UHGV virus genome: UHGV-0170246
Length of the DNA: 45,982 nucleotides
Source: a virus
Direction: 5' to 3' (one strand)
Numbering within the stretch: the stretch's first letter is position 1; each line of letters opens with the position of its first letter. The position numbers and the translations under genes are program-made. The notes under the pieces were generated by a model, which saw only the letters and a program-made list of their open reading frames with translations, made no database searches and had not been told where the DNA came from. Positions 129 through 14,258 of this stretch are shown in pieces.

Positions 129-683
129 ATGCAATATGGTTATGCGAGGGTGTCAACTTTTGACCAGAATTTGGAATTACAACTGGAGGCGCTCAGGAGT
201 TCAGGATGTGACCGGATTTTTGAAGATAAAATATCCGGTGCTAAATCAAAACGACCAGGACTTGATAAGCTACTGAAGGTGTTACGACCGGGCGATACGG
301 TTATTGTCTGGAAGCTGGACCGAATGGGGCGTTCTCTGATTCATCTTGTTGATTTACTTAACCATTTTTTATCAAACGACATTGAGTTTATTTCGATTAC
401 GGAAGGGATAAAAATTAGCACTTCAATTGGCCGCTTTGCCTACACGATGCTGAGTGCAGTCGCAGAGATGGAGCGGGAAAATATGATTGAAAGAACGCGT
501 GCAGGATTGGCGGTGGCAAGGGCTAACGGCAGGATAGGAGGACGCCGCTCAAAGCTGGCACCAGAGCAATGGGAACAGATCGGAAGGCTTATTGCGAATG
601 GTGTTTCACGTAAGCGGATAGCGATTATCTTCGATGTTACCTTATCCACGCTTTACCGCAGGTTTCCGGCTGGGAATCATTGA
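129..683 (+). CDS. Serine recombinase, DNA invertase of the Gin/Cin/Pin/Hin family
   Basis: 184 aa; N-terminal YARVST..Q motif with catalytic Ser, GRIGGR and C-terminal HTH; close to phage Mu Gin from recalled sequence. Confidence 0.9.
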   Translation: MQYGYARVSTFDQNLELQLEALRSSGCDRIFEDKISGAKSKRPGLDKLLKVLRPGDTVIVWKLDRMGRSLIHLVDLLNHFLSNDIEFISITEGIKISTSIGRFAYTMLSAVAEMERENMIERTRAGLAVARANGRIGGRRSKLAPEQWEQIGRLIANGVSRKRIAIIFDVTLSTLYRRFPAGNH

Positions 684-805
684 CTGGAGTTAGGCCAGTA
701 GTATGATGCTCGCAAAACGAGATCCAATTTAGATCCTTTTACTGGTGGATTATCGTTCGATCAGTGAGAGACTTCGTGCATGACCGAAAGTGTTGTGGTA
801 GAGTT

Positions 806-834
806 CTCTTAAAACCACGTAAAGTGGTTATAAT
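806..834 (+). promoter_or_regulatory. Candidate repA promoter: perfect -10 TATAAT (829-834) overlapped by a repressor-type operator palindrome
   Basis: TATAAT read directly; -35 is weak; the palindrome at 813-829 abuts and overlaps the -10. Confidence 0.4.
813..829. promoter_or_regulatory. Operator-like palindrome AACCAC-N5-GTGGTT (AACCACGTAAAGTGGTT)
   Basis: Perfect 6-5-6 inverted repeat; same half-sites as the palindromes in the cI/cro-like intergenic region (10533-10652) and at 9781-9797. Confidence 0.55.
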
Positions 835-870
835 TGTGGGTGTCTGGTTGAAAAGTGACCAGATATGGAA

Positions 871-953
871 ACAAAAAGCCCGCAGATAAATCTGCGGGCT
901 TCTTGCGACATCCACGGAAAGGAAAACCAACAACTAACCATGGGCGCCTCGAC
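871..953 (-). ncRNA. Candidate CopA-like antisense RNA of the repA leader
   Basis: Minus-strand promoter (rc of 983-988 gives TTGCGT -35, 16-nt spacer, rc of 961-966 gives a perfect TATAAT -10) followed by a 9-bp GC-rich hairpin (877-900) and a U-run on the minus strand; geometry matches IncFII copA/copT, but coordinates are inferred. Confidence 0.4.
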
Positions 954-998
954 TACTCCCATTATACGTTGGTTTTCCGTGGACGCAAGAGCGAACAT

Positions 999-1847
999 AT
1001 GGATAGACCAATGCCGTCTCTACGTTCAGCTTACGTTTGTAATTTGTCGCCGGAGTTCCAGCCTCCAAAGCACCATACGCACAAGCTGCCGCTGGTGTTA
1101 TCTGATGCTTTACAGCGCATTAATGGTCGTGATCTTACGTGTGAGGTTGCGTTCTACGTTAATCAACCGTCAGAGCGGAAACGCCGGATAAACGAGCATC
1201 GTCGTCGGGCGATTAATGCTGTGATTGCTGCGATTTTGCACCATGTAAACATCATTTCTAAGCGGGTTCTGGCCAGTGCTGAGGCGTTGGCTGATTTTTG
1301 CGGCCTGTCTACCGTATCCGAAGCTGGGAACAAGTCTATAACGCGCTGTACAAGGGCGTTGTCGCAACTGAAAGAGTTAGGTTTTATTGATTATGAACGT
1401 CGCTGGGATCGGGTGAATAAACAGTATTGGCCAGCGAAAATCGAGATTCGTGATCAACTGCTGGAAACAGTTGGTATTACTGAACAAGCATGGAGACGTG
1501 CGGTTAGCCAGAAACTTAATTACTTCAATGCGAAGAATAGCGAACGGCTTAAAAAAGCGATAACGGAGGCTGATTATAAGCGTATTGTTATTCAGGAGCA
1601 GATGGAGAATGTATGGCGTCAGAGGAAGACGGCCAGAGAGATAAAGGCAAAACAGAAAGCAGCGGAGAGAGCTGCGCGTCTTGTTCAGGAAAAGGGAGAG
1701 GCCGAACTTCGTCATCAAATCACTAGAGAGGTTAGCCAGGAATTTGCTGATGGCATGTATCCTGGTGCTGACCTTGCATATTTACGCTCCCTCGTTGAGC
1801 AGCGTTATAACAGGCTAAGAAAGACCTGGAAATCACTCCAACATTAA
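999..1847 (+). CDS. repA: Plasmid replication initiator, IncFII RepA1-like
   Basis: In-frame ATG inside ORF 855-1847 gives 282 aa, close to RepA1 length; motif GLSTVSEAGNKSITRCTRALSQLKELGFIDY resembles the R100 RepA1 region as recalled. The GTG at 855 is probably an ORF-finder extension. Confidence 0.7.
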   Translation: MDRPMPSLRSAYVCNLSPEFQPPKHHTHKLPLVLSDALQRINGRDLTCEVAFYVNQPSERKRRINEHRRRAINAVIAAILHHVNIISKRVLASAEALADFCGLSTVSEAGNKSITRCTRALSQLKELGFIDYERRWDRVNKQYWPAKIEIRDQLLETVGITEQAWRRAVSQKLNYFNAKNSERLKKAITEADYKRIVIQEQMENVWRQRKTAREIKAKQKAAERAARLVQEKGEAELRHQITREVSQEFADGMYPGADLAYLRSLVEQRYNRLRKTWKSLQH

Positions 1848-1859
1848 CCCACCTGAATG

Positions 1860-2300
1860 ATGAATCCGGTTTTACCGGAGGATTATCTACGTCGCAATAA
1901 AATATCTGTTCAAAAAACAATCTAAATTAATTTTCTCTAAACCTGAACACAGCAAAAATATCGCCTTTACAGGTATCGGATAATAAAGTTATCCACAGTT
2001 TTGATATGTATATGCAAATGGTTTTTTATAATAGATGCACTAAACAAATAAATGCAAAATTACTTTCTTTTATTAAAACTTTCTTTATTTAACTTACGCA
2101 GGCTTTGCCTGTGAATATGTTCGCCCTTGCAGCGAGCTAAAGCTCGCGCCGGTTCGAGTCGCTACGCTCAAATATACCTCCTCCGGCACTTGCCGGAGGC
2201 ATGGAGCAGCCTGATCATCCTTTTCGAAACGGCGCGTTTCGAACTATACAAAATCAATTTATATAAGGCCGAAATAAGGCCTACGGCCGGGCTTTGCAGG
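1860..2300. other. Candidate replication origin (oriR-like): consensus DnaA box TTATCCACA at 1989-1997, AT-rich tract and several perfect palindromes
   Basis: DnaA box read directly; AT-rich 1920-2100; palindromes GCGAGCTAAAGCTCGC (~2132-2147) and TTCGAAACGGCGCGTTTCGAA (~2224-2244); position just downstream of repA as in IncFII replicons. Confidence 0.5.
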
Positions 2301-5645: not shown

Positions 5646-6791
5646 TTATGGTCTGCTTTTCTGTGCCAGCTTATCAGCACATGTTTTTATCAGATCCTGT
5701 AGTGTCCTGGCTGGCAGGTTTGCATCCAGTACGCTGAGTATGCTGTTGTGTTCTGCTTGGTCGACTACTTTGCCTGTCGGTGGTAGTAGCTTGAGCTGAG
5801 GATTCAGGTTTTCGTCAAAGCTGATAAGTGCTCTGGCGTTTCTGAGCAGATCAAGAAGTAAGGCTGATATCACATTTTCCTGAGTCATTGCTGGCAGACT
5901 TAGCGCCGCTTTGGTTTTCCCTGTTGCCTTGTCAAACTCCTTGATTAGTTCCTTCCTGTAGTTCGGTTCCGTTAATAGCCGATTATGCTCTGTTGCCGCG
6001 CGGATAATCGTTTTTTCCTGGTATAGTCGTTTAGCCAGATCACGCTCGTACTGTGTTTTTAACACGCTGCTGATAGCGTTAAAGGCTTCAATGTAGGCCA
6101 GCTTGATATCTTTCACGCTTGGACCGTCGATGCTCTCCATGAGCAAGGTAAATCCGTCTTTTGTCATGCGATAGATTGTTATTTCGCGGTCGCTTCCTTC
6201 CAGCGGTCGTTGCTCTTTAAAGAAGTGACGCGCCGCAGCTGTGCGAGGAATGCGTAACGCATCGATGGCCATAACGATGGAATTGTTTGTGGTGCTGAAT
6301 GCCTGGGCAACATCGGCTGAGGTTGTGAGTGGCTCGTTGTTGCACACCTTAATGTAATACATTGGTTTAGCGTTGAGCGTATCGACAACCTCACGAGCAT
6401 TGTTTGGTGAGACGGTTACGGTCGCGGCCGTTTGCGCGTTCTGGTTGAAGTAGCAGTCTTCCAGCCGTTCGAATACATCCCACGCCTGATCGGTTTCGAG
6501 CATTTTAGCGTGACGTGCAGCCCCGCGTTCTGTCCAGAGGATGAGGGAGCGGACTTTAGGTGAAACTGGATTTTGAGAGTAGTTTAAAGCTACCCGCAAT
6601 TCTTTAAGGTCATTACCAACAACTTTGAAAAAGTGTTTCCCTTCAACGAAACGTGCTTTGTTCTCATGATGATTCTGGCGAATACGCACCGGCTCAGTGC
6701 CGTAAAGCTGTGCTAGTAACTCGGTAGTAATGACAGGGATTTGGTTATGCAGGATAGGCTGTAGGGTGTTAACGGTCGGAAGCGTTTTCAT
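5646..6791 (-). CDS. Antirepressor-like protein (ORF6N-type N-terminus, Rha-like central region)
   Basis: 381 aa; N-terminal pattern PVITTELLAQLYGTEPVRIRQNHHENKARFVEGKHFFK and internal TTSADVAQAF segment typical of phage Ant/Rha-type regulators (recalled domain patterns). Confidence 0.55.
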   Translation of the reverse strand: MKTLPTVNTLQPILHNQIPVITTELLAQLYGTEPVRIRQNHHENKARFVEGKHFFKVVGNDLKELRVALNYSQNPVSPKVRSLILWTERGAARHAKMLETDQAWDVFERLEDCYFNQNAQTAATVTVSPNNAREVVDTLNAKPMYYIKVCNNEPLTTSADVAQAFSTTNNSIVMAIDALRIPRTAAARHFFKEQRPLEGSDREITIYRMTKDGFTLLMESIDGPSVKDIKLAYIEAFNAISSVLKTQYERDLAKRLYQEKTIIRAATEHNRLLTEPNYRKELIKEFDKATGKTKAALSLPAMTQENVISALLLDLLRNARALISFDENLNPQLKLLPPTGKVVDQAEHNSILSVLDANLPARTLQDLIKTCADKLAQKSRP

Positions 6792-6979
6792 TTTGCACCT
6801 CCCATAACTACTTTGGTTACGAGGGAGATTTTTGCGTCAGAAACAGCGTTATCGTTGCTGGCGATGCGCATAGCTTCGCGCTCGATGATTTCAGCCAGGC
6901 GGAATTTATCGGCGTATGAGGCTTTCTTGAGAAGGATCTTTACGAGGTTGACGTAATAGTCATGGGGTAAGTTTGTCAT
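6788..6979 (-). CDS. Small hypothetical protein, first gene of the antirepressor operon
   Basis: 63-aa ORF; its stop overlaps the antirepressor start (ATGA). Confidence 0.35.
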   Translation of the reverse strand: MTNLPHDYYVNLVKILLKKASYADKFRLAEIIEREAMRIASNDNAVSDAKISLVTKVVMGGAK

Positions 6980-7394
6980 GGTGATAGTTCCCTTAAAGGT
7001 TAAGGATACTCACCACCGTCTGGTTCCAATCATTGGGTGGTGAGACGTACAGGGTTGGAACTACCGGTCACCATGGAATCCGGCGAGTCTTACGACTCCC
7101 CCGCACGCCCCACCATAATTTGGGTGTAGCAGTGCTTTACGCATAAAAAAACCGCTAACGCGGTATGCGCCATGATGATTATCGGGGTTCCAATCCCGAC
7201 CGTAGATTTTGCTACGGCTCGGAAAGTGTCCACCAATGGCGCATTTATGTCAATACAGAGGGATTTTAACAGAGACAACCACATAGCGTGGGTTTATTGG
7301 TAGGCAGAAACAAAAAAACCGCCCTATTGAGGACGGTTCTTTCGTGCTGATCGGATTCGCGGTCCTTTCAGCATAACGTCGTTGTACTAATACA

Positions 7395-7414: not shown

Positions 7415-7644
7415 AACTACATTCTTACCCAACTGAGGTGAATAGTCCACTATTCATATAAAAAAATTTAGCTCATTAGCTCATGCAAAATGAAGGTTTT
7501 TAACTTATTTACGTGTAATCTCATGTAATAAAAGCGTTTTTTATTCCTTCATTATGAAGGGTATGACGTGTAATATGGCTTGGGGCCTTTCCGCCGATTC
7601 GCACCCGGGCACTGACTTTCAGGAAAGGATTATCCACTTGCCGT

Positions 7645-7664
7645 ACCACGCAGGCACAAACAGC
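7645..7664. repeat. Direct repeat copy 2 (ACCACGCAGGCACAAACAGC)
   Basis: See copy 1. Confidence 0.6.
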
Positions 7665-7728
7665 GTGCTTGCTCTCGCGTCATTTTCGTCGGTGGGGATG
7701 CCGTGAAACGGCCTGTAAGGGCCACACA

Positions 7729-7851
7729 ATGAAAAAATACTACATGTGTATTTTTATCGTTGTTACTGGAGCTTTGTTTACGCCACATGGGGAGGGTTGG
7801 AAGATTACTGATAACGCTCTGAATGTGACGATAAACATTAGCAGCAAGTAG
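7729..7851 (+). CDS. Possible small hydrophobic peptide (40 aa)
   Basis: In-frame ATG of ORF 7669-7851; one predicted transmembrane stretch (YYMCIFIVVTGALF); followed at once by a strong terminator; no recognisable family. Confidence 0.2.
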   Translation: MKKYYMCIFIVVTGALFTPHGEGWKITDNALNVTINISSK

Positions 7852-7856
7852 CGATT

Positions 7857-7880
7857 AGGCCCCTTCGGGGGCCTTTTTTA
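7857..7880 (+). terminator. Rho-independent terminator
   Basis: 7-bp stem AGGCCCC/GGGGCCT with TTCG tetraloop followed by TTTTTT. Confidence 0.75.
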
Positions 7881-8028
7881 CTGCAACCTGCATTTGATAG
7901 CTGTTTACCATTGCAGTAGCTTATATACCGTAAGAGCCACAAGATGTGGTTACGATTTCAATACGGGGTTGATATGAAAAAGCGGTATGACGAATTTGAT
8001 GGTTTCTAAGAGACGTTGACCTCTAATG

Positions 8029-8055
8029 AGGCGGGTTGGTTGCCCGCCTTTTTTA
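8029..8055 (+). terminator. Rho-independent terminator
   Basis: Stem GGCGGG/CCCGCC with a 7-nt loop followed by TTTTTT; second plus-strand terminator ~170 bp after the first. Confidence 0.7.
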
Positions 8056-8276: not shown

Positions 8277-8525
8277 TTACTTCTGGTTGTATTGAGCCTT
8301 GAGTAACTCAAAAGATTTTGTCAGCACTTCTTTCAATGACATATCCATTGAACTGGCGAACGTTTTGTACTCGCGTTTAAATTCAGGGTCGACGTTAAAC
8401 GCCATTTGTGCCCCACCTGATTTGGTTCTGGTTGGCGTTTCAGTCGGGTCGAAAACCTGCGGTTGTTCGATCGATGGCGGTACGCCTTTGCTGTTCTTCT
8501 TTGGTGGTTTTGATGGTGCGGCCAT
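8277..8525 (-). CDS. ParG-like ribbon-helix-helix centromere-binding protein
   Basis: 82 aa, immediately downstream of parA; unstructured basic N-terminal tail and C-terminal RHH-like segment (FNVDPEFKREYKTFASSMDMSLKEVL). Confidence 0.6.
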   Translation of the reverse strand: MAAPSKPPKKNSKGVPPSIEQPQVFDPTETPTRTKSGGAQMAFNVDPEFKREYKTFASSMDMSLKEVLTKSFELLKAQYNQK

Positions 8526-8537
8526 GTGTATCCCCTC

Positions 8538-8570
8538 TTATATAAATCTATAAAACTATAATTATATATT
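8538..8570. repeat. AT-rich motif locus (TATAAATCTATAAAACTATAATTATATATT) downstream of parG
   Basis: Member of the dispersed TATAATTATATA(AAT) motif family. Confidence 0.55.
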
Positions 8571-9237
8571 ACGCGGCAGTAGTCAGAGCCTCAAGCTGGT
8601 TGATAATCCCCTGAATAACGTCGTCTGCCTTTTTGCGTGGCGCAACGTATGAGCATTCAATGAGGCTTAAGCCCTTATCCTGAGCTTTGCTCAGAGCTGG
8701 CTTGTGGGGAATGTACTTATCGACAACAAAGTATGGCGTATTAGCCAGGTACTCTTGGGCTTCAATATAGTCAGCTTCATTTTCAGCCGCGCCGGAAAAC
8801 ACCATGCAAATTTTCTTGATTGGCACACCCTTTTTAACGATGCCGTGAGCAGTGTTAACGGTGGTTTCCAGGTCATCGGTAGAGAATCGGGTTGGCAAAA
8901 TAACCATATCCAGAAATTCAGATAGCTTCGGTACTGATTCAGATGCGTAGGCACCGCCATCAACGATAACCAGGTCGTATACTTCTGATTCGATGATTTT
9001 CTGGACTTGTGATGGTGTGCCGCACGGCTGCGCCGCGATTGCTGGTTCGATATTGTTGGCCATTCTGCGTTGTACCCAACGCGTTACCGTTCCGTTAAGC
9101 ACATCCATATCGATCAGGCATACATTCCAGCCAGCCTTTGCATAAGCAACTGCTAAAGCACGGGCAATTGTTGATTTGGTTACGCCGCCTTTTCCGTTGA
9201 AAATACCTACAGAGATAGTCATTTGTCGAGACTCCAT
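8569..9237 (-). CDS. parA: ParA-family partition ATPase (small type Ib ParA/ParF-like)
   Basis: 222 aa; deviant Walker A GKGGVTKST near the N-terminus; followed by a small RHH protein gene. Confidence 0.8.
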   Translation of the reverse strand: MESRQMTISVGIFNGKGGVTKSTIARALAVAYAKAGWNVCLIDMDVLNGTVTRWVQRRMANNIEPAIAAQPCGTPSQVQKIIESEVYDLVIVDGGAYASESVPKLSEFLDMVILPTRFSTDDLETTVNTAHGIVKKGVPIKKICMVFSGAAENEADYIEAQEYLANTPYFVVDKYIPHKPALSKAQDKGLSLIECSYVAPRKKADDVIQGIINQLEALTTAA

Positions 9238-9246
9238 GTGTTTGGT

Positions 9247-9350
9247 TATATAATTCTATAAATCTATATTTATAGAACGAGGTAAGCATAACCAACTTTT
9301 TGGCGGATGGAAAGTGTTTTATATAATTATATAAATCTATAATCATATAA
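9247..9350. repeat. Two AT-rich motif blocks upstream of parA (candidate par promoter/centromere)
   Basis: TATATAATTCTATAAATCTATATTTATAGA and TTATATAATTATATAAATCTATAATCATATAA read directly. Confidence 0.55.
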
Positions 9351-9372
9351 GCGGGCGTTAGCCCGCTTGCAG

Positions 9373-9747
9373 TCAGAGGTCAGCTATCGTTGATATCAGT
9401 TGATTTGCTAGCTGTCGCTGTTTACGTGAGAGGGTTAGAGCAGCTTCTGAGCGGTCGCTAAGAGGGGTGTTTTCATCAAGAATCATGAGGCATACAGAAA
9501 TAATAGCCCTGTTATATGCCATCAATGGCTGGCACAGCTTCGATACCGCTGGCACATCGTATTGCAAGGCCGTTTTGAGGCAGACTTTTTGTTCTGATGC
9601 CAGATGAAGGATAGATTCTATCCAGTCGATATCTTTCTCATTATCAATGATTTGGCATAACATACACTCAATCGCTATGTTCAACGCTTGGATTTCGATT
9701 CCAGCAGTGATCAGAGTTTCATTTTTATTGGCTGTATGTAATTCCAT
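9373..9747 (-). CDS. Hypothetical protein downstream of the repressor gene
   Basis: 124-aa ORF, same strand as the repressor; an operator-type palindrome lies between the two genes. Confidence 0.45.
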   Translation of the reverse strand: MELHTANKNETLITAGIEIQALNIAIECMLCQIIDNEKDIDWIESILHLASEQKVCLKTALQYDVPAVSKLCQPLMAYNRAIISVCLMILDENTPLSDRSEAALTLSRKQRQLANQLISTIADL

Positions 9748-9780
9748 GCGTAGCCTCTTTTATACTTTTACATGTTGTCA

Positions 9781-9797
9781 AAACCACATAATGTGGT
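9781..9797. promoter_or_regulatory. Operator-like palindrome AACCACATAATGTGGTT
   Basis: Perfect 6-5-6 inverted repeat, same half-sites as 813-829. Confidence 0.55.
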
Positions 9798-9839
9798 TTT
9801 TTTGAGCGTAGAAATGCACGGCTTTCGCCGTGCTGTGTA

Positions 9840-10496
9840 TCATAACCAGTTGACAACACTAACTACGCGGCCAAGAACTTTATAACGCTTAAATTCCTCG
9901 TTATTCAGATGCTTAGTGTTCATTTCAGCATCCCTTTCGGTTGACAGCATAACAGCATTGTCACCCGGTATGACTCTACAGTGCCTCAAAACAACCAGGC
10001 CATTTCTGTCTTCAAGGGCATAGATCCCCTCATGAATCTCTGTATCGTCTGTATTAATCAGGACTTGGGAGCCAGGGGATATTGTTGGTGACATTAACTC
10101 ATCGTTGCTCTGGAGAACTGACAGAGACGATGGGTTGATGTTCTTGCTTCGTAGAATCTCCTGTTCTATCGCCAGCACTGGCTTTTCTCCGGCGTGCGAT
10201 GCTATGTCATTTTTTATAGCTACAAGCCCAGGAATAACAGGAGCGTTAGTATTCTGGGGTGGGAACGGGTTATCTGTTAAGCACGCGATATAAGGCGCTG
10301 ATGCTTTCAGGGCGTGCGCGATTTTCTTGATGGCAGGTATCGATGGTTGTCTTAATCCGGCCTCATAGTTCTGCAAGGTGCTTAAGCCTATTCCAGTGAC
10401 TTGCTGGAGATCTCCGGCAGTCATGCCGGATTGTTTCCGTAGAGTCTGAATGCGCAGACCTATTTCTTTCTTGATGTTCTCGTCGTTGCTTTTCAT
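9840..10496 (-). CDS. CI-like phage repressor (N-terminal HTH, C-terminal LexA/S24-like domain)
   Basis: 218 aa; HTH TAGDLQQVTGIGLSTLQNYEAG; C-terminal region has the overall S24 pattern but the GxSM catalytic motif is not obvious on hand alignment. Confidence 0.75.
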   Translation of the reverse strand: MKSNDENIKKEIGLRIQTLRKQSGMTAGDLQQVTGIGLSTLQNYEAGLRQPSIPAIKKIAHALKASAPYIACLTDNPFPPQNTNAPVIPGLVAIKNDIASHAGEKPVLAIEQEILRSKNINPSSLSVLQSNDELMSPTISPGSQVLINTDDTEIHEGIYALEDRNGLVVLRHCRVIPGDNAVMLSTERDAEMNTKHLNNEEFKRYKVLGRVVSVVNWL

Positions 10497-10532: not shown

Positions 10533-10652
10533 TACCACATTTAGTGGTTTTCACATGGTAAGACGAGAGGTGGACCACAAATAGAAGGTTATTTTTTGTT
10601 TCGCCCATTGAAAAACTCACGATATGTGGTTTTAATACCACATATCGTGGTT
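10533..10652. promoter_or_regulatory. Immunity-region operator cluster: three palindromes of the ACCAC-N5-GTGGT type
   Basis: TACCACATTTAGTGGTT (10533-10549), ACTCACGATATGTGGTT (10615-10631), TACCACATATCGTGGTT (10636-10652) between the divergent repressor and rightward early genes. Confidence 0.65.
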
Positions 10653-13190: not shown

Positions 13191-14258
13191 ATGAATAAAC
13201 AAGTAATTATTTCTGACTGGATCAACAACCCTAACAGCCTGTTAAGCACTGATACTGGCTACCTATTACGCCATGTTAATGGTCGTATGGTCAAAAGCGA
13301 TGAGCACGAAACCTTTTTCTTTGTTGAAGACGATGGGCGTATCTATGAGGATGGTTACTCTTATGAAGCCCAAACTGGTTGTATCCCTGCGGAGCTGGTG
13401 GACGTAACAGAAGATCTGCGCAAAGCATGGCTTGAACAGCAGCAGCGCGGAGATGATTACGTAAACACCTATCAGGAACGCCAGAACGCGCGTCTTGCCC
13501 GATATATTGCTCGTGCAGAAAAAGCCAGAAAAGAAGGTGCGGTAGCGCATAAGCGAGCGCATGACCTGTTGGATGTGATCCCGTTAGGCCAGCCGATTTT
13601 AGTTGACCATTATAGCGCGAAAGGCCATCGCCGCCGTTTGTCTAAAGCTGATGCGTTATTCAGAAAAGCGTTTGTTGAATGCGAAAGTAAAGCATCACAC
13701 TACGAGAGCAAAGCCGCAGGTGTTGGTCGTAATGGAATTTCGTCTGATGATCCTGATGCGCTATTTAAGTTGCTTCGTAAGCTGCAAGGCTGCATGAAGT
13801 CACACGTCAAAATGAAGGCAGCAAATAAGGCCATTCGCAAATACAAAAAAGACCAATTACAGCAGCTTTCTGCATTAATCGATCTCAGGTTTACAGAAAG
13901 CGAAGCCAAAGAGTTACTGGCCGGAGATTTCTGTGGGCACATCGGATTCCCTTCATACGCACTGAGCAACAATAAGGCCGAAATCAAACGACTACAGAGC
14001 CGTATTAAGGAGCTTGAATCGGTCAAGTCTGTAACAGGAGCACAGCGCGAAGAATACGACGGCTTTTCTATGGAGATAGATCCAGAGGATAACCGCATCC
14101 TGTTTTATTTCCCTGGCAAACCAGAGGCAAACATTCGTTCGCTGCTTAAATCACGCGCCTTTAAGTGGAGTCCAACCCGTAATGCATGGGTTCGCAAGAT
14201 TACTCCAAACGCCCTGGCTGATGCCCGATATCTGAAAGAATCGCTATTGAAAGCCTGA
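13191..14258 (+). CDS. Hypothetical protein (355 aa), first gene after cassette B
   Basis: Long ORF with GGAG RBS in the conserved leader; family not recognised. Confidence 0.5.
   Translation: MNKQVIISDWINNPNSLLSTDTGYLLRHVNGRMVKSDEHETFFFVEDDGRIYEDGYSYEAQTGCIPAELVDVTEDLRKAWLEQQQRGDDYVNTYQERQNARLARYIARAEKARKEGAVAHKRAHDLLDVIPLGQPILVDHYSAKGHRRRLSKADALFRKAFVECESKASHYESKAAGVGRNGISSDDPDALFKLLRKLQGCMKSHVKMKAANKAIRKYKKDQLQQLSALIDLRFTESEAKELLAGDFCGHIGFPSYALSNNKAEIKRLQSRIKELESVKSVTGAQREEYDGFSMEIDPEDNRILFYFPGKPEANIRSLLKSRAFKWSPTRNAWVRKITPNALADARYLKESLLKA

Follow-up and report, generated by a model that had tools for sequence, protein, structure and literature searches.

Phage-plasmids frequently carry accessory and resistance genes, and the control of their replication has been worked out for few of them, namely P1 and N15. 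N15 is linear and its RepA is a large primase/helicase-type protein; in P1 the C1 repressor, whose operator is asymmetric, controls the lytic replicon repL and not the plasmid replicon. Here, the region in front of the replication gene repA was analysed in the virus genome UHGV-0170246, a stretch of 45,982 nucleotides (nt) that in its full length is referred to as the window. The ~48-kb element concerned is a myovirus-type phage-plasmid, and the region under study is the control region of its IncFII-superfamily replicon. We propose that repA is controlled by an operator of the phage repressor, a conserved upstream promoter, an antisense RNA and a refolding switch in the mRNA leader, a model that as a whole we regard as likely from comparison of the sequences.

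The CB repressor of N15 binds OL operators at repA (PMC4488713). In N15 and phiKO2, repressor operators lie both in the immunity region and upstream of the replication gene, an arrangement tying copy number to lysogeny, and the window shows the same layout for its predicted operators. The window differs from N15 in that the element is circular and encodes an IncFII-family RepA, in that one operator instead of two is located ~107 nt past a conserved promoter, and in that an antisense layer is predicted in addition. The P1 C1 regulon with immI (c4, icd, ant) likewise comprises scattered repressor operators, one of them before a C4-type RNA and antirepressor operon; unlike P1, the window has a symmetric 17-bp operator of the lambda type.

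For the IncFII plasmid R1, the control circuit consists of PcopB, the CopB-repressed PrepA and CopA (PMC5717011), and more repA together with less copA transcription leads to runaway replication with up to ~2,000 copies per chromosome (PMC3495755). The window resembles R1 and the IncFII plasmids in the Pfam family IncFII_repA, in a distal constitutive promoter with a repressor-controlled site nearer the gene, in a predicted countertranscript of ~85-90 nt from a promoter between the target and repA, and in a probable origin with a DnaA box downstream. It differs from R1 by the lack of copB, which the phage repressor seems to replace, by the lack of a tap open reading frame (ORF) ending at the repA start, and by an antisense start inside the loop of the target helix, so that the RNA would cover one arm only. 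In pSK41 of Staphylococcus, binding of the antisense RNA RNAI has been proposed to induce a stem-loop sequestering the ribosome-binding site (PMC5703833). This RNAI, ~83 nt long and complementary to a part of the leader at some distance before the initiation region, follows the same logic as the switch between three leader regions proposed below. As pSK41 has a RepA_N initiator, an unrelated host and no sequence homology to the window, the likeness is functional and, for the window, predicted.

The element and its relatives

Across the repA region, the window is ~98% identical to the 48.5-kb circular plasmid of Escherichia coli ATCC 25922, to ~60 other non-mobilizable plasmids of ~48 kb and to the Yersinia phages vB_YpM_39, 41 and 44. 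The queried region was found in 71 of 5,426 complete E. coli genomes (~1%), on plasmids in every case, and the family also occurs in Salmonella, Klebsiella and Citrobacter as well as in three sequenced phages with Yersinia pestis as the recorded host. Annotated relatives encode contractile-tail, baseplate, head, terminase and lysis genes alongside ParA and RepA, and the element was therefore classified as a myovirus-type phage-plasmid. The MOB-suite typing line in PLSDB gives no replicon type for the family. In the literature on the Yersinia phages, on accession CP009073 and on phage-plasmid group names, no description of this replicon was found; pSLy3 turned out to be a member of the unrelated SSU5 group. 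The control region is framed by two genes:

129-683: tail-fibre invertase gene hin; the control region sits between hin and repA

1011-1847, plus strand: repA, IncFII RepA family, with its start at ATG 1011 or at the in-frame ATG 999

A probable operator of the phage repressor upstream of repA

The palindrome described by the initial annotation in front of repA is present at 813-829. It reads AACCACGTAAAGTGGTT and consists of the arms AACCAC and GTGGTT, a perfect 6-bp inverted repeat, around the 5-nt spacer GTAAA; palindromy is confined to the arms, the spacer being non-palindromic. Its motif is shared, as had been claimed, with three sites of the immunity region, which match with 1, 2 and 1 mismatches. 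In the window the operator pattern occurred nine times with at most two mismatches (1.5 expected) and six times with at most one (0.06 expected), two of these six being perfect. The further sites and the protein presumed to bind them are:

10533-10549, 10615-10631 and 10636-10652: immunity-region operators with 1, 2 and 1 mismatches, between the repressor gene and the early operon

9782-9798: operator, perfect, upstream of a 124-amino-acid (aa) ORF and the parA operon; kept in the relatives L001, L002, L003 and L010

7277-7293: operator upstream of an isrK-like RNA, a C4-like RNA and the antirepressor operon

7935 (region 7935-8055): operator AGCCAC-N5-GTGGTT, followed by TACGAT; precedes an 11-codon ORF at 7975-8010

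9840-10496, minus strand: CI-like repressor of 218 aa, presumed operator-binding protein

The 218-aa protein matches Pfam HTH_3 (E=4.5e-11) and, along its entire length, PHROG 4 'transcriptional repressor' (E=1e-26); it also matches PHROG 6201 'CI-like repressor', and its S24 match of 18.4 bits lies under the Pfam cut-off. With an N-terminal helix-turn-helix repressor, a divergent early operon and three 17-bp dyad operators in 10533-10652, which are syntenic in relatives, the immunity region has a lambda-type layout. Upstream of repA, the half-sites are invariant in E. coli, two Salmonella lineages and the relative L018, with the spacers GTAAA, GTAAC, GTTGT and GATGT; invariant half-sites around a free spacer are a pattern typical of a protein-dimer site.

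The strongest evidence came from the Citrobacter freundii relative L045, which has the same gene order, a RepA that is 60% identical and a CI-like repressor that is 27% identical. The L045 site syntenic to 813-829 is ACTACAAAACGTAGC, with ACTAC half-sites versus ACCAC in the window. The 7-mer TTGTAGT/ACTACAA has six copies in the 20.8 kb of L045, five in the intergenic region between cI and the early genes and one at repA. The repA site of L045 thus carries L045's own immunity motif, and therefore the palindrome at repA tracks the repressor specificity of each lineage. Taken together, 813-829 very probably serves the element's own CI-like repressor as an operator. With an operator of the same sequence as those of the immunity region upstream of repA, and with its co-variation with the repressor type in L045, the proposal of N15-like control of the initiator by the lysogeny repressor gains support from the comparison across lineages. 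The perfect site at 9782-9798 appears to be part of the same repressor regulon.

Around this second perfect site the order in the parA module (8277-9798) is operator 9782-9798, 124-aa ORF, parA and an 82-aa ORF, and partition may also be under repressor control. Repeated motifs resembling TATAAATCTATAA occur on both sides of parA (~8530-8570 and ~9240-9350) and may be centromere-like sites. In the region 7935-8055, which is absent from the ATCC 25922 plasmid, a strong terminator-like hairpin was noted near 8029-8055, beyond the 11-codon ORF. In the 218-aa repressor, the usual catalytic Ser and Lys seem, by eye, to be replaced (…DELMSP…, …LGRVV…), and the protein may be a repressor without self-cleavage that is induced via an antirepressor instead. 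The block 760-812, which directly precedes the operator (AGACTTCGTGCA…TAGAGTTCT), hardly varies even in L018; no ORF or promoter explains its conservation, and within it TAGAGTTC is kept in L045 and L041.

Candidate promoters of repA and position of the probable operator

Promoters were searched for by a consensus scan and by a simple position-weight scan of our own on both strands of the 46-kb window. The relevant elements are:

680-707, plus strand: P_up, TTGACT, 16-nt spacer, TATGAT; strongest candidate for the main promoter of repA; overlaps with the stop codon of hin

829-834, plus strand: P_op, -10-like hexamer TATAAT with the poor -35 CTCTTA; its first T is shared with the right half-site of the operator

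721-735: two GATC(C) sites shortly after the P_up start

P_up was the sole site listed by the consensus scan and, with 13.2 bits, was among the two best sites of the whole window in the position-weight scan. Its counterpart ranked top in the Salmonella relative L003 (13.2 bits) and in L045 and L041 (TTGACG-16-TAGAAT, 14.1 bits), even with a different upstream gene. In all four lineages compared, P_up and the antisense promoter P_anti described below were the two best-scoring sites. The centre of the operator is located at ~+107 relative to the P_up start, and at ~+115 in L045.

The TATAAT at 829-834 overlaps the operator as the initial annotation had described, and the overlap was confirmed in the sequence. 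Its interpretation as the repA promoter on which the operator sits is not supported by the comparison, given that the overlapped -10 is good in the window only and that the conserved strong promoter is that at 680-707, ~110 bp upstream. P_op scored 7.1 bits in the window and 4.9 bits with TATGAT, and its score was negative in the types of Salmonella and L018, down to -4.1; the hexamer of the relatives is TATGAT, TACGAT, TATGAA or TAAGTA. Among 38 copies from relatives, both the TATAAT and the GTAAA spacer are private to the window, the closest relatives having GTAAC and TATGAT. Two private single-base differences are involved, at 825 (GTAAC to GTAAA) and at 832 (TATGAT to TATAAT), and the change at 832, which creates a perfect -10 over the operator, may be a promoter-up variant.

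These data bear on an explanation that we consider unlikely, according to which 829-834 is the -10 of the main repA promoter, the repressor acts by simple occlusion, and the antisense RNA blocks a tap-like leader peptide coupled to repA. The hexamer is indeed perfect in the window and stands in the same register as in the PR-like promoter at 10608-10637 (GTGGT+TTTAAT at 10627-10637), and a covarying sense hairpin starts at 840, where a transcript from 829-834 would be expected to begin. However, the decay of the hexamer in relatives, its poor -35 and a far stronger conserved promoter upstream speak against it. Since P_op is private and the strong P_up is conserved upstream, a roadblock or control of a weak proximal promoter is likelier than occlusion of the main promoter. 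Most likely, the repressor would act as a roadblock on P_up transcripts, on a weak proximal promoter, or on both.

A GATC cluster is found at the same place as 721-735 in the Salmonella lineages, L018, L041 (5493-5525) and L045 (9186-9215), which hints at a role of Dam methylation or SeqA in repA expression.

A predicted antisense RNA in the repA leader

Between the operator and repA, the minus strand carries the following predicted unit:

869-954, minus strand: antisense RNA of ~85 nt, composed of a 5' tail, stem-loop I and a terminator

961-988, minus strand: P_anti, TTGCGT (988-983), 16-nt spacer, TATAAT (966-961)

878-899, minus strand: terminator hairpin with a 9-bp G+C stem, followed by UUUUUGUUU; the U-tract is the complement of 869-877

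918-937: hypervariable A/C-rich (CAA)n-like stretch, loop of antisense stem-loop I

Both signals named in the initial annotation were recovered in the sequence, namely the minus-strand TTGCGT and TATAAT with a 16-nt spacer and the 9-bp G+C hairpin with a U-run, which is located at 878-899 and has its U-run on the minus strand only. P_anti scored 11.1 bits, and 19 position/spacer combinations score this high on both strands of the 46-kb window; it was missed by the consensus scan because its -35 matches three of the six consensus positions. The terminator scan did not list 878-899, probably because it extends the stem through A/U pairs and thereby uses up the U-run. Terminator-bearing Rfam families gave weak, sub-threshold matches, each of which falls on the minus strand of 878-899.

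The antisense segment folds with -40.6 kcal/mol (z-score -6.3). For its comparison, 12 distinct variants of minus-strand 954-869 were gathered from plasmids, viral contigs and metagenomes. All 288 of 288 pair cells were paired, with two compensatory pairs. G·U pairs on the minus strand accounted for 48 of the 288 cells; on the sense strand they would become C·A mismatches, and the constraint therefore acts on the minus-strand RNA. The loop at 918-937 varies from 11 to 20 nt over the 12 variants between invariant flanks, and as its length differences are not multiples of three, it is non-coding on either strand.

In more distant relatives the unit is retained with altered sequence. One pair of the terminator stem changes from A-U to G-C in L018, and L045 and L041 have another terminator stem, GGCCCGCTA, in the same orientation and with the U-tract still on the minus strand. 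The hexamers of P_anti are kept in L045 and L041 (TTGCAT-18-TATAAT, 11.5 bits) with an unrelated spacer. Conservation of the minus-strand unit thus extends across lineages down to 60% RepA identity, and a small countertranscript gene in the leader of this IncFII-family RepA is supported by these comparisons.

Class of the predicted antisense RNA

The initial annotation had called the antisense unit CopA-like and its mode of action IncFII-style. The predicted countertranscript unit and the IncFII-family RepA agree with this part of the claim, but a CopA match, tap and copB were not found. The Rfam model CopA (RF00042) gave no match in 600-1150 even at E<=10, nor in the whole window at the gathering threshold, although the same model as positive control reached 98.3 bits on the classical IncFII plasmid pMEX01, just upstream of tap. 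In pMEX01, tap (729-803) overlaps the repA start at 796; in the window, codon-by-codon reading revealed no ORF with a start codon that ends at 999-1013 as a tap-type leader peptide would. No conserved ORF for copB is present in 708-812, where the candidate frames hold stops in Salmonella relatives according to the alignments. A CopB-like plus-strand protein or minus-strand ORFs of 56-64 aa in 708-900 were likewise considered and rejected, as their frames are not conserved in alignments.

The nearest non-phage RepA relatives belong to the IncL/M, IncB and IncI plasmids with the PK-repBA leader (RF01089), which is carried by the plasmid relatives L040 (RepA 63% identical) and p3K44 (37%). The PK-repBA model reached 56.7 bits in L021 and 49.3 bits in L040 and gave no match in the window or in the phage-plasmid relatives L041 and L045. 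By sequence reading, L040 shares with the window a hairpin whose U-tail is on the minus strand and, 50-60 nt further on, a perfect minus-strand TATAAT; it also shows traces of sequence similarity to the window leader (AAACAAAGCCCCG; GGATTATACC). Unlike PK-repBA leaders, those of the phage-plasmids are without the long stem-loop I with a UUGGCG loop, and inspection by eye of the surroundings of the ribosome-binding site for a pseudoknot partner to the conserved loop gave 4-5 bp at most, none of them convincing. Membership in CopA, PK-repBA or any other Rfam family was rejected, as the leader search gave sub-threshold terminator matches alone while the positive controls worked. The antisense RNA thus appears to be of an uncatalogued type. 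As judged from the folding described below, the layout of the leader speaks for refolding of the mRNA upon antisense binding and not for IncFII-style tap coupling.

Reading frames around the repA start

RepA matches Pfam PF02387 (E=5.5e-44, profile positions 2-272 of 275), and profile position 2 falls at nt 1023; to classical IncFII RepA proteins it is ~32-37% identical over part of the length (~32% over 45%). Annotated RepA starts disagree, being at ~867 in ATCC 25922 (PGAP), at 999 in CP099184 and at the equivalent of 1011 in Salmonella. An extended start (~867 of PGAP, or the ORF 855-1847) was rejected on the basis of leader indels of 2, 4 and 5 nt between relatives and of Pfam homology that begins at nt 1023; the longest version would read through the non-coding hypervariable stretch. 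One frame crosses the start:

940-1191, plus strand: candidate leader ORF, MGASTTPIIRW(F/I)SVDARAN

This ORF is what remains of the leader-peptide part of the explanation by promoter occlusion. Its first 19 codons are conserved, four of five substitutions being synonymous, and its start codon lies inside the antisense target. However, it stops after 32, 51, 65 or 83 codons in the different relatives, crosses the repA start out of frame and does not end there; with the CopA model silent despite a working control, this part too is doubtful.

Between the antisense unit and repA, some more distant phage-plasmid relatives carry an extra ORF that overlaps the start of repA: L045 (9516-10004) and L042 (9528-10004) with 158-162 aa, and L041 (~5824-6012) truncated to 64 aa. 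A match to Pfam IncFII_repA was obtained for the L042 copy; in L045 the overlap reads ATATGA. By sequence, the window family seems to have lost this ORF, and the in-frame ATG 999 (MDRP) looks like a remnant of its start.

Folding of the leader and a proposed switch

The following plus-strand elements were considered in the leader:

840-866, plus strand: leader hairpin with several pairs changed on both sides across three lineages

901-931, plus strand: region 1, 5' arm of the long-range helix H3, inside the antisense target (inverted repeats I2, I4 and I7; RNAalifold)

968-990, plus strand: region 2, 3' arm of H3, which can pair with region 3 instead

997-1013, plus strand: region 3, initiation region with a conserved AUGGA and the repA AUG

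The hairpin at 840-866 has four G·U pairs that exist on the plus strand alone, and a hairpin occurs at the equivalent place in L041 and, by sequence reading, in L045. In the RNAalifold prediction, H3 is formed by 901-907 with 984-990 and 911-931 with 968-983. It shows compensatory changes (G916A with C978T; AAAACC/GGTTTT versus AAATCC/GGATTT), and matched arms reach -26 to -39 kcal/mol, versus -13 when arms of the window are crossed with those of L045. The spacer and -35 of P_anti fall on the 3' arm of H3. This arm therefore shares sequence with part of the antisense RNA, and the mRNA contains within itself a competitor for its own target.

When 869-954 was blocked in silico, the freed 3' arm paired with the initiation region (967-981 with 997-1013), and the probability of an unpaired repA AUG fell from 0.95 to 0.02 in the E. 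coli types. Alternative hairpins of regions 2 and 3 were found in five lineages, built from differing sequences; compared with shuffled sequences, p was <0.0003 for L045, 0.01-0.02 for L041, 0.012 for E. coli, 0.02 for Salmonella and 0.09 for L018. The pairing of region 2 with the initiation region, termed H4, was kept as a working hypothesis after the L045, L041 and whole-hairpin tests (p <0.0003 to 0.02). From these models, a refolding switch is plausible.

The same structures could be taken to mean that there is no antisense RNA and that 869-990 is a structured cis-acting leader acting on mRNA stability or translation, with the minus-strand signals as by-products of structure. H3 and the sense hairpins are well supported by covariation, and the -35 and spacer of P_anti lie within the 3' arm of H3. 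This explanation is nevertheless improbable. The predicted sense fold leaves the TATAAT at 966-961 unpaired, yet this hexamer is invariant and is present also in L041, L045 and, by sequence reading, L040; the U-tract follows the hairpin on the minus strand alone in the families of both the window and L045/L041; and stem-loop I requires G·U pairs present on the minus strand alone. Moreover, related replicons carry the Rfam PK-repBA leader type, a family in which RNAI has been demonstrated experimentally.

A model for the control of repA

According to the proposed model, repA would be transcribed mainly from P_up at 680-707. Repressor bound at 813-829 would reduce transcription into repA by blocking the elongating polymerase or by occluding a weak proximal promoter, and inactivation of the repressor would yield more repA mRNA. 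A constitutive P_anti (988-961) would produce an RNA of ~85 nt that ends at 899-878 and is complementary to the leader at 869-954. Without the antisense RNA, region 1 (901-931) would pair with region 2 (968-990) to form H3 and leave the repA start open; if the antisense RNA takes region 1 first, region 2 would pair with 997-1013 and repA translation would be switched off. The two layers of repA control suggested in the initial annotation are a reasonable reading of the operator and the leader countertranscript gene.

Several observations weigh against parts of this model. ACCAC and ACTAC differ by one base in a 5-bp core, and the comparison of repressor specificities comprises a single second lineage. 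A position ~107 nt downstream of the promoter is unusual for the operator of a CI-type repressor, and most relatives have a weak proximal promoter under the operator or none at all. Since the -35 of P_anti is part of the 3' arm of H3, it may be conserved for the sake of RNA structure and not as a promoter. The probability of an unpaired repA AUG does not fall upon blocking in Salmonella (0.44 to 0.47) or L041 (0.41 to 0.66), and H4 as a simple duplex is marginal in single lineages (p=0.07-0.3). Finally, the conserved ORF at 940 could mean leader-peptide coupling.

Binding of the palindrome by a different protein, be it an early protein of the Cro kind, a further helix-turn-helix protein encoded by the element or an autoregulating RepA, is hardly to be expected: Cro-type proteins usually use CI operators and the element encodes several other helix-turn-helix proteins, but the motif clusters at the classic place, with the repressor gene on one side and the divergent early operon on the other, and shifts along with the 27%-identical repressor in L045 while RepA stays 60% identical, and IncFII RepA proteins are not known to autoregulate.

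By analogy with the systems described above, de-repression could plausibly drive lytic amplification from the same replicon. As a more far-reaching and tentative possibility, which we hold with considerably less confidence than the model itself, the locus could be a natural runaway-replication switch, in which one IncFII-type replicon serves both plasmid maintenance and lytic amplification. Loss of the repressor would let repA transcription outrun the constitutive, uncatalogued antisense RNA; the 3' arm of H3 would guard the target, the first pairing with region 1 would decide, and the loser would free region 2 to close the repA start.

Further features of the element

The probable origin is located in an A+T-rich stretch at 1848-2100, downstream of repA, as read from the sequence:

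1989-1997, plus strand: perfect DnaA box, TTATCCACA

In IncFII plasmids oriR is likewise placed downstream of repA. No second initiator is annotated. The early operon encodes a DUF3560 protein (13191-14258), the C-terminal half of which matches a PHROG annotated as primase (E=3e-36), and which is a possible additional replication function; the notion of RepA as the sole replication function is weakened by this match.

A P1-type immI-like module was found on the minus strand at 5646-7293, comprising the operator 7277-7293, the isrK-like RNA 7218-7145, the C4 RNA 7120-7033, a 63-aa ORF (6979-6788) and a 381-aa antirepressor (6791-5646). The same isrK-like and C4 RNAs, together with a match to the c4-a1b1 target family, occur in L045. 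A full-length match to the ryfA RNA (7581-7879, 134.6 bits; 173 bits in L045) holds a small hydrophobic ORF (MKKYYMCIFIVVTGALF…), and this locus may be a small-toxin locus. A tRNA gene is located inside the phage-plasmid at 19729-19801 of the window (67 bits). In L018 (1-3000), the repA control region comes straight after the genes for tail sheath, tube and assembly, and the upstream promoter is without a -35; L018 may be a deletion derivative or a rearranged element.

Implications

Known kinds of control, an N15-type operator and a leader antisense RNA, seem from their sequences to be combined here. Without a replicon type in PLSDB, the family may escape notice in plasmid surveys, and the hypervariable loop of the antisense RNA is a candidate for what determines incompatibility subtypes. 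The predictions are cheap to test, as the element is carried by E. coli ATCC 25922, a quality-control strain used worldwide. If the model is true, the leader and its antisense RNA would represent a new architecture for the IncFII-IncB-IncL/M superfamily, and plasmid copy control would be wired into the lysis-lysogeny switch, with a phage repressor in place of CopB.

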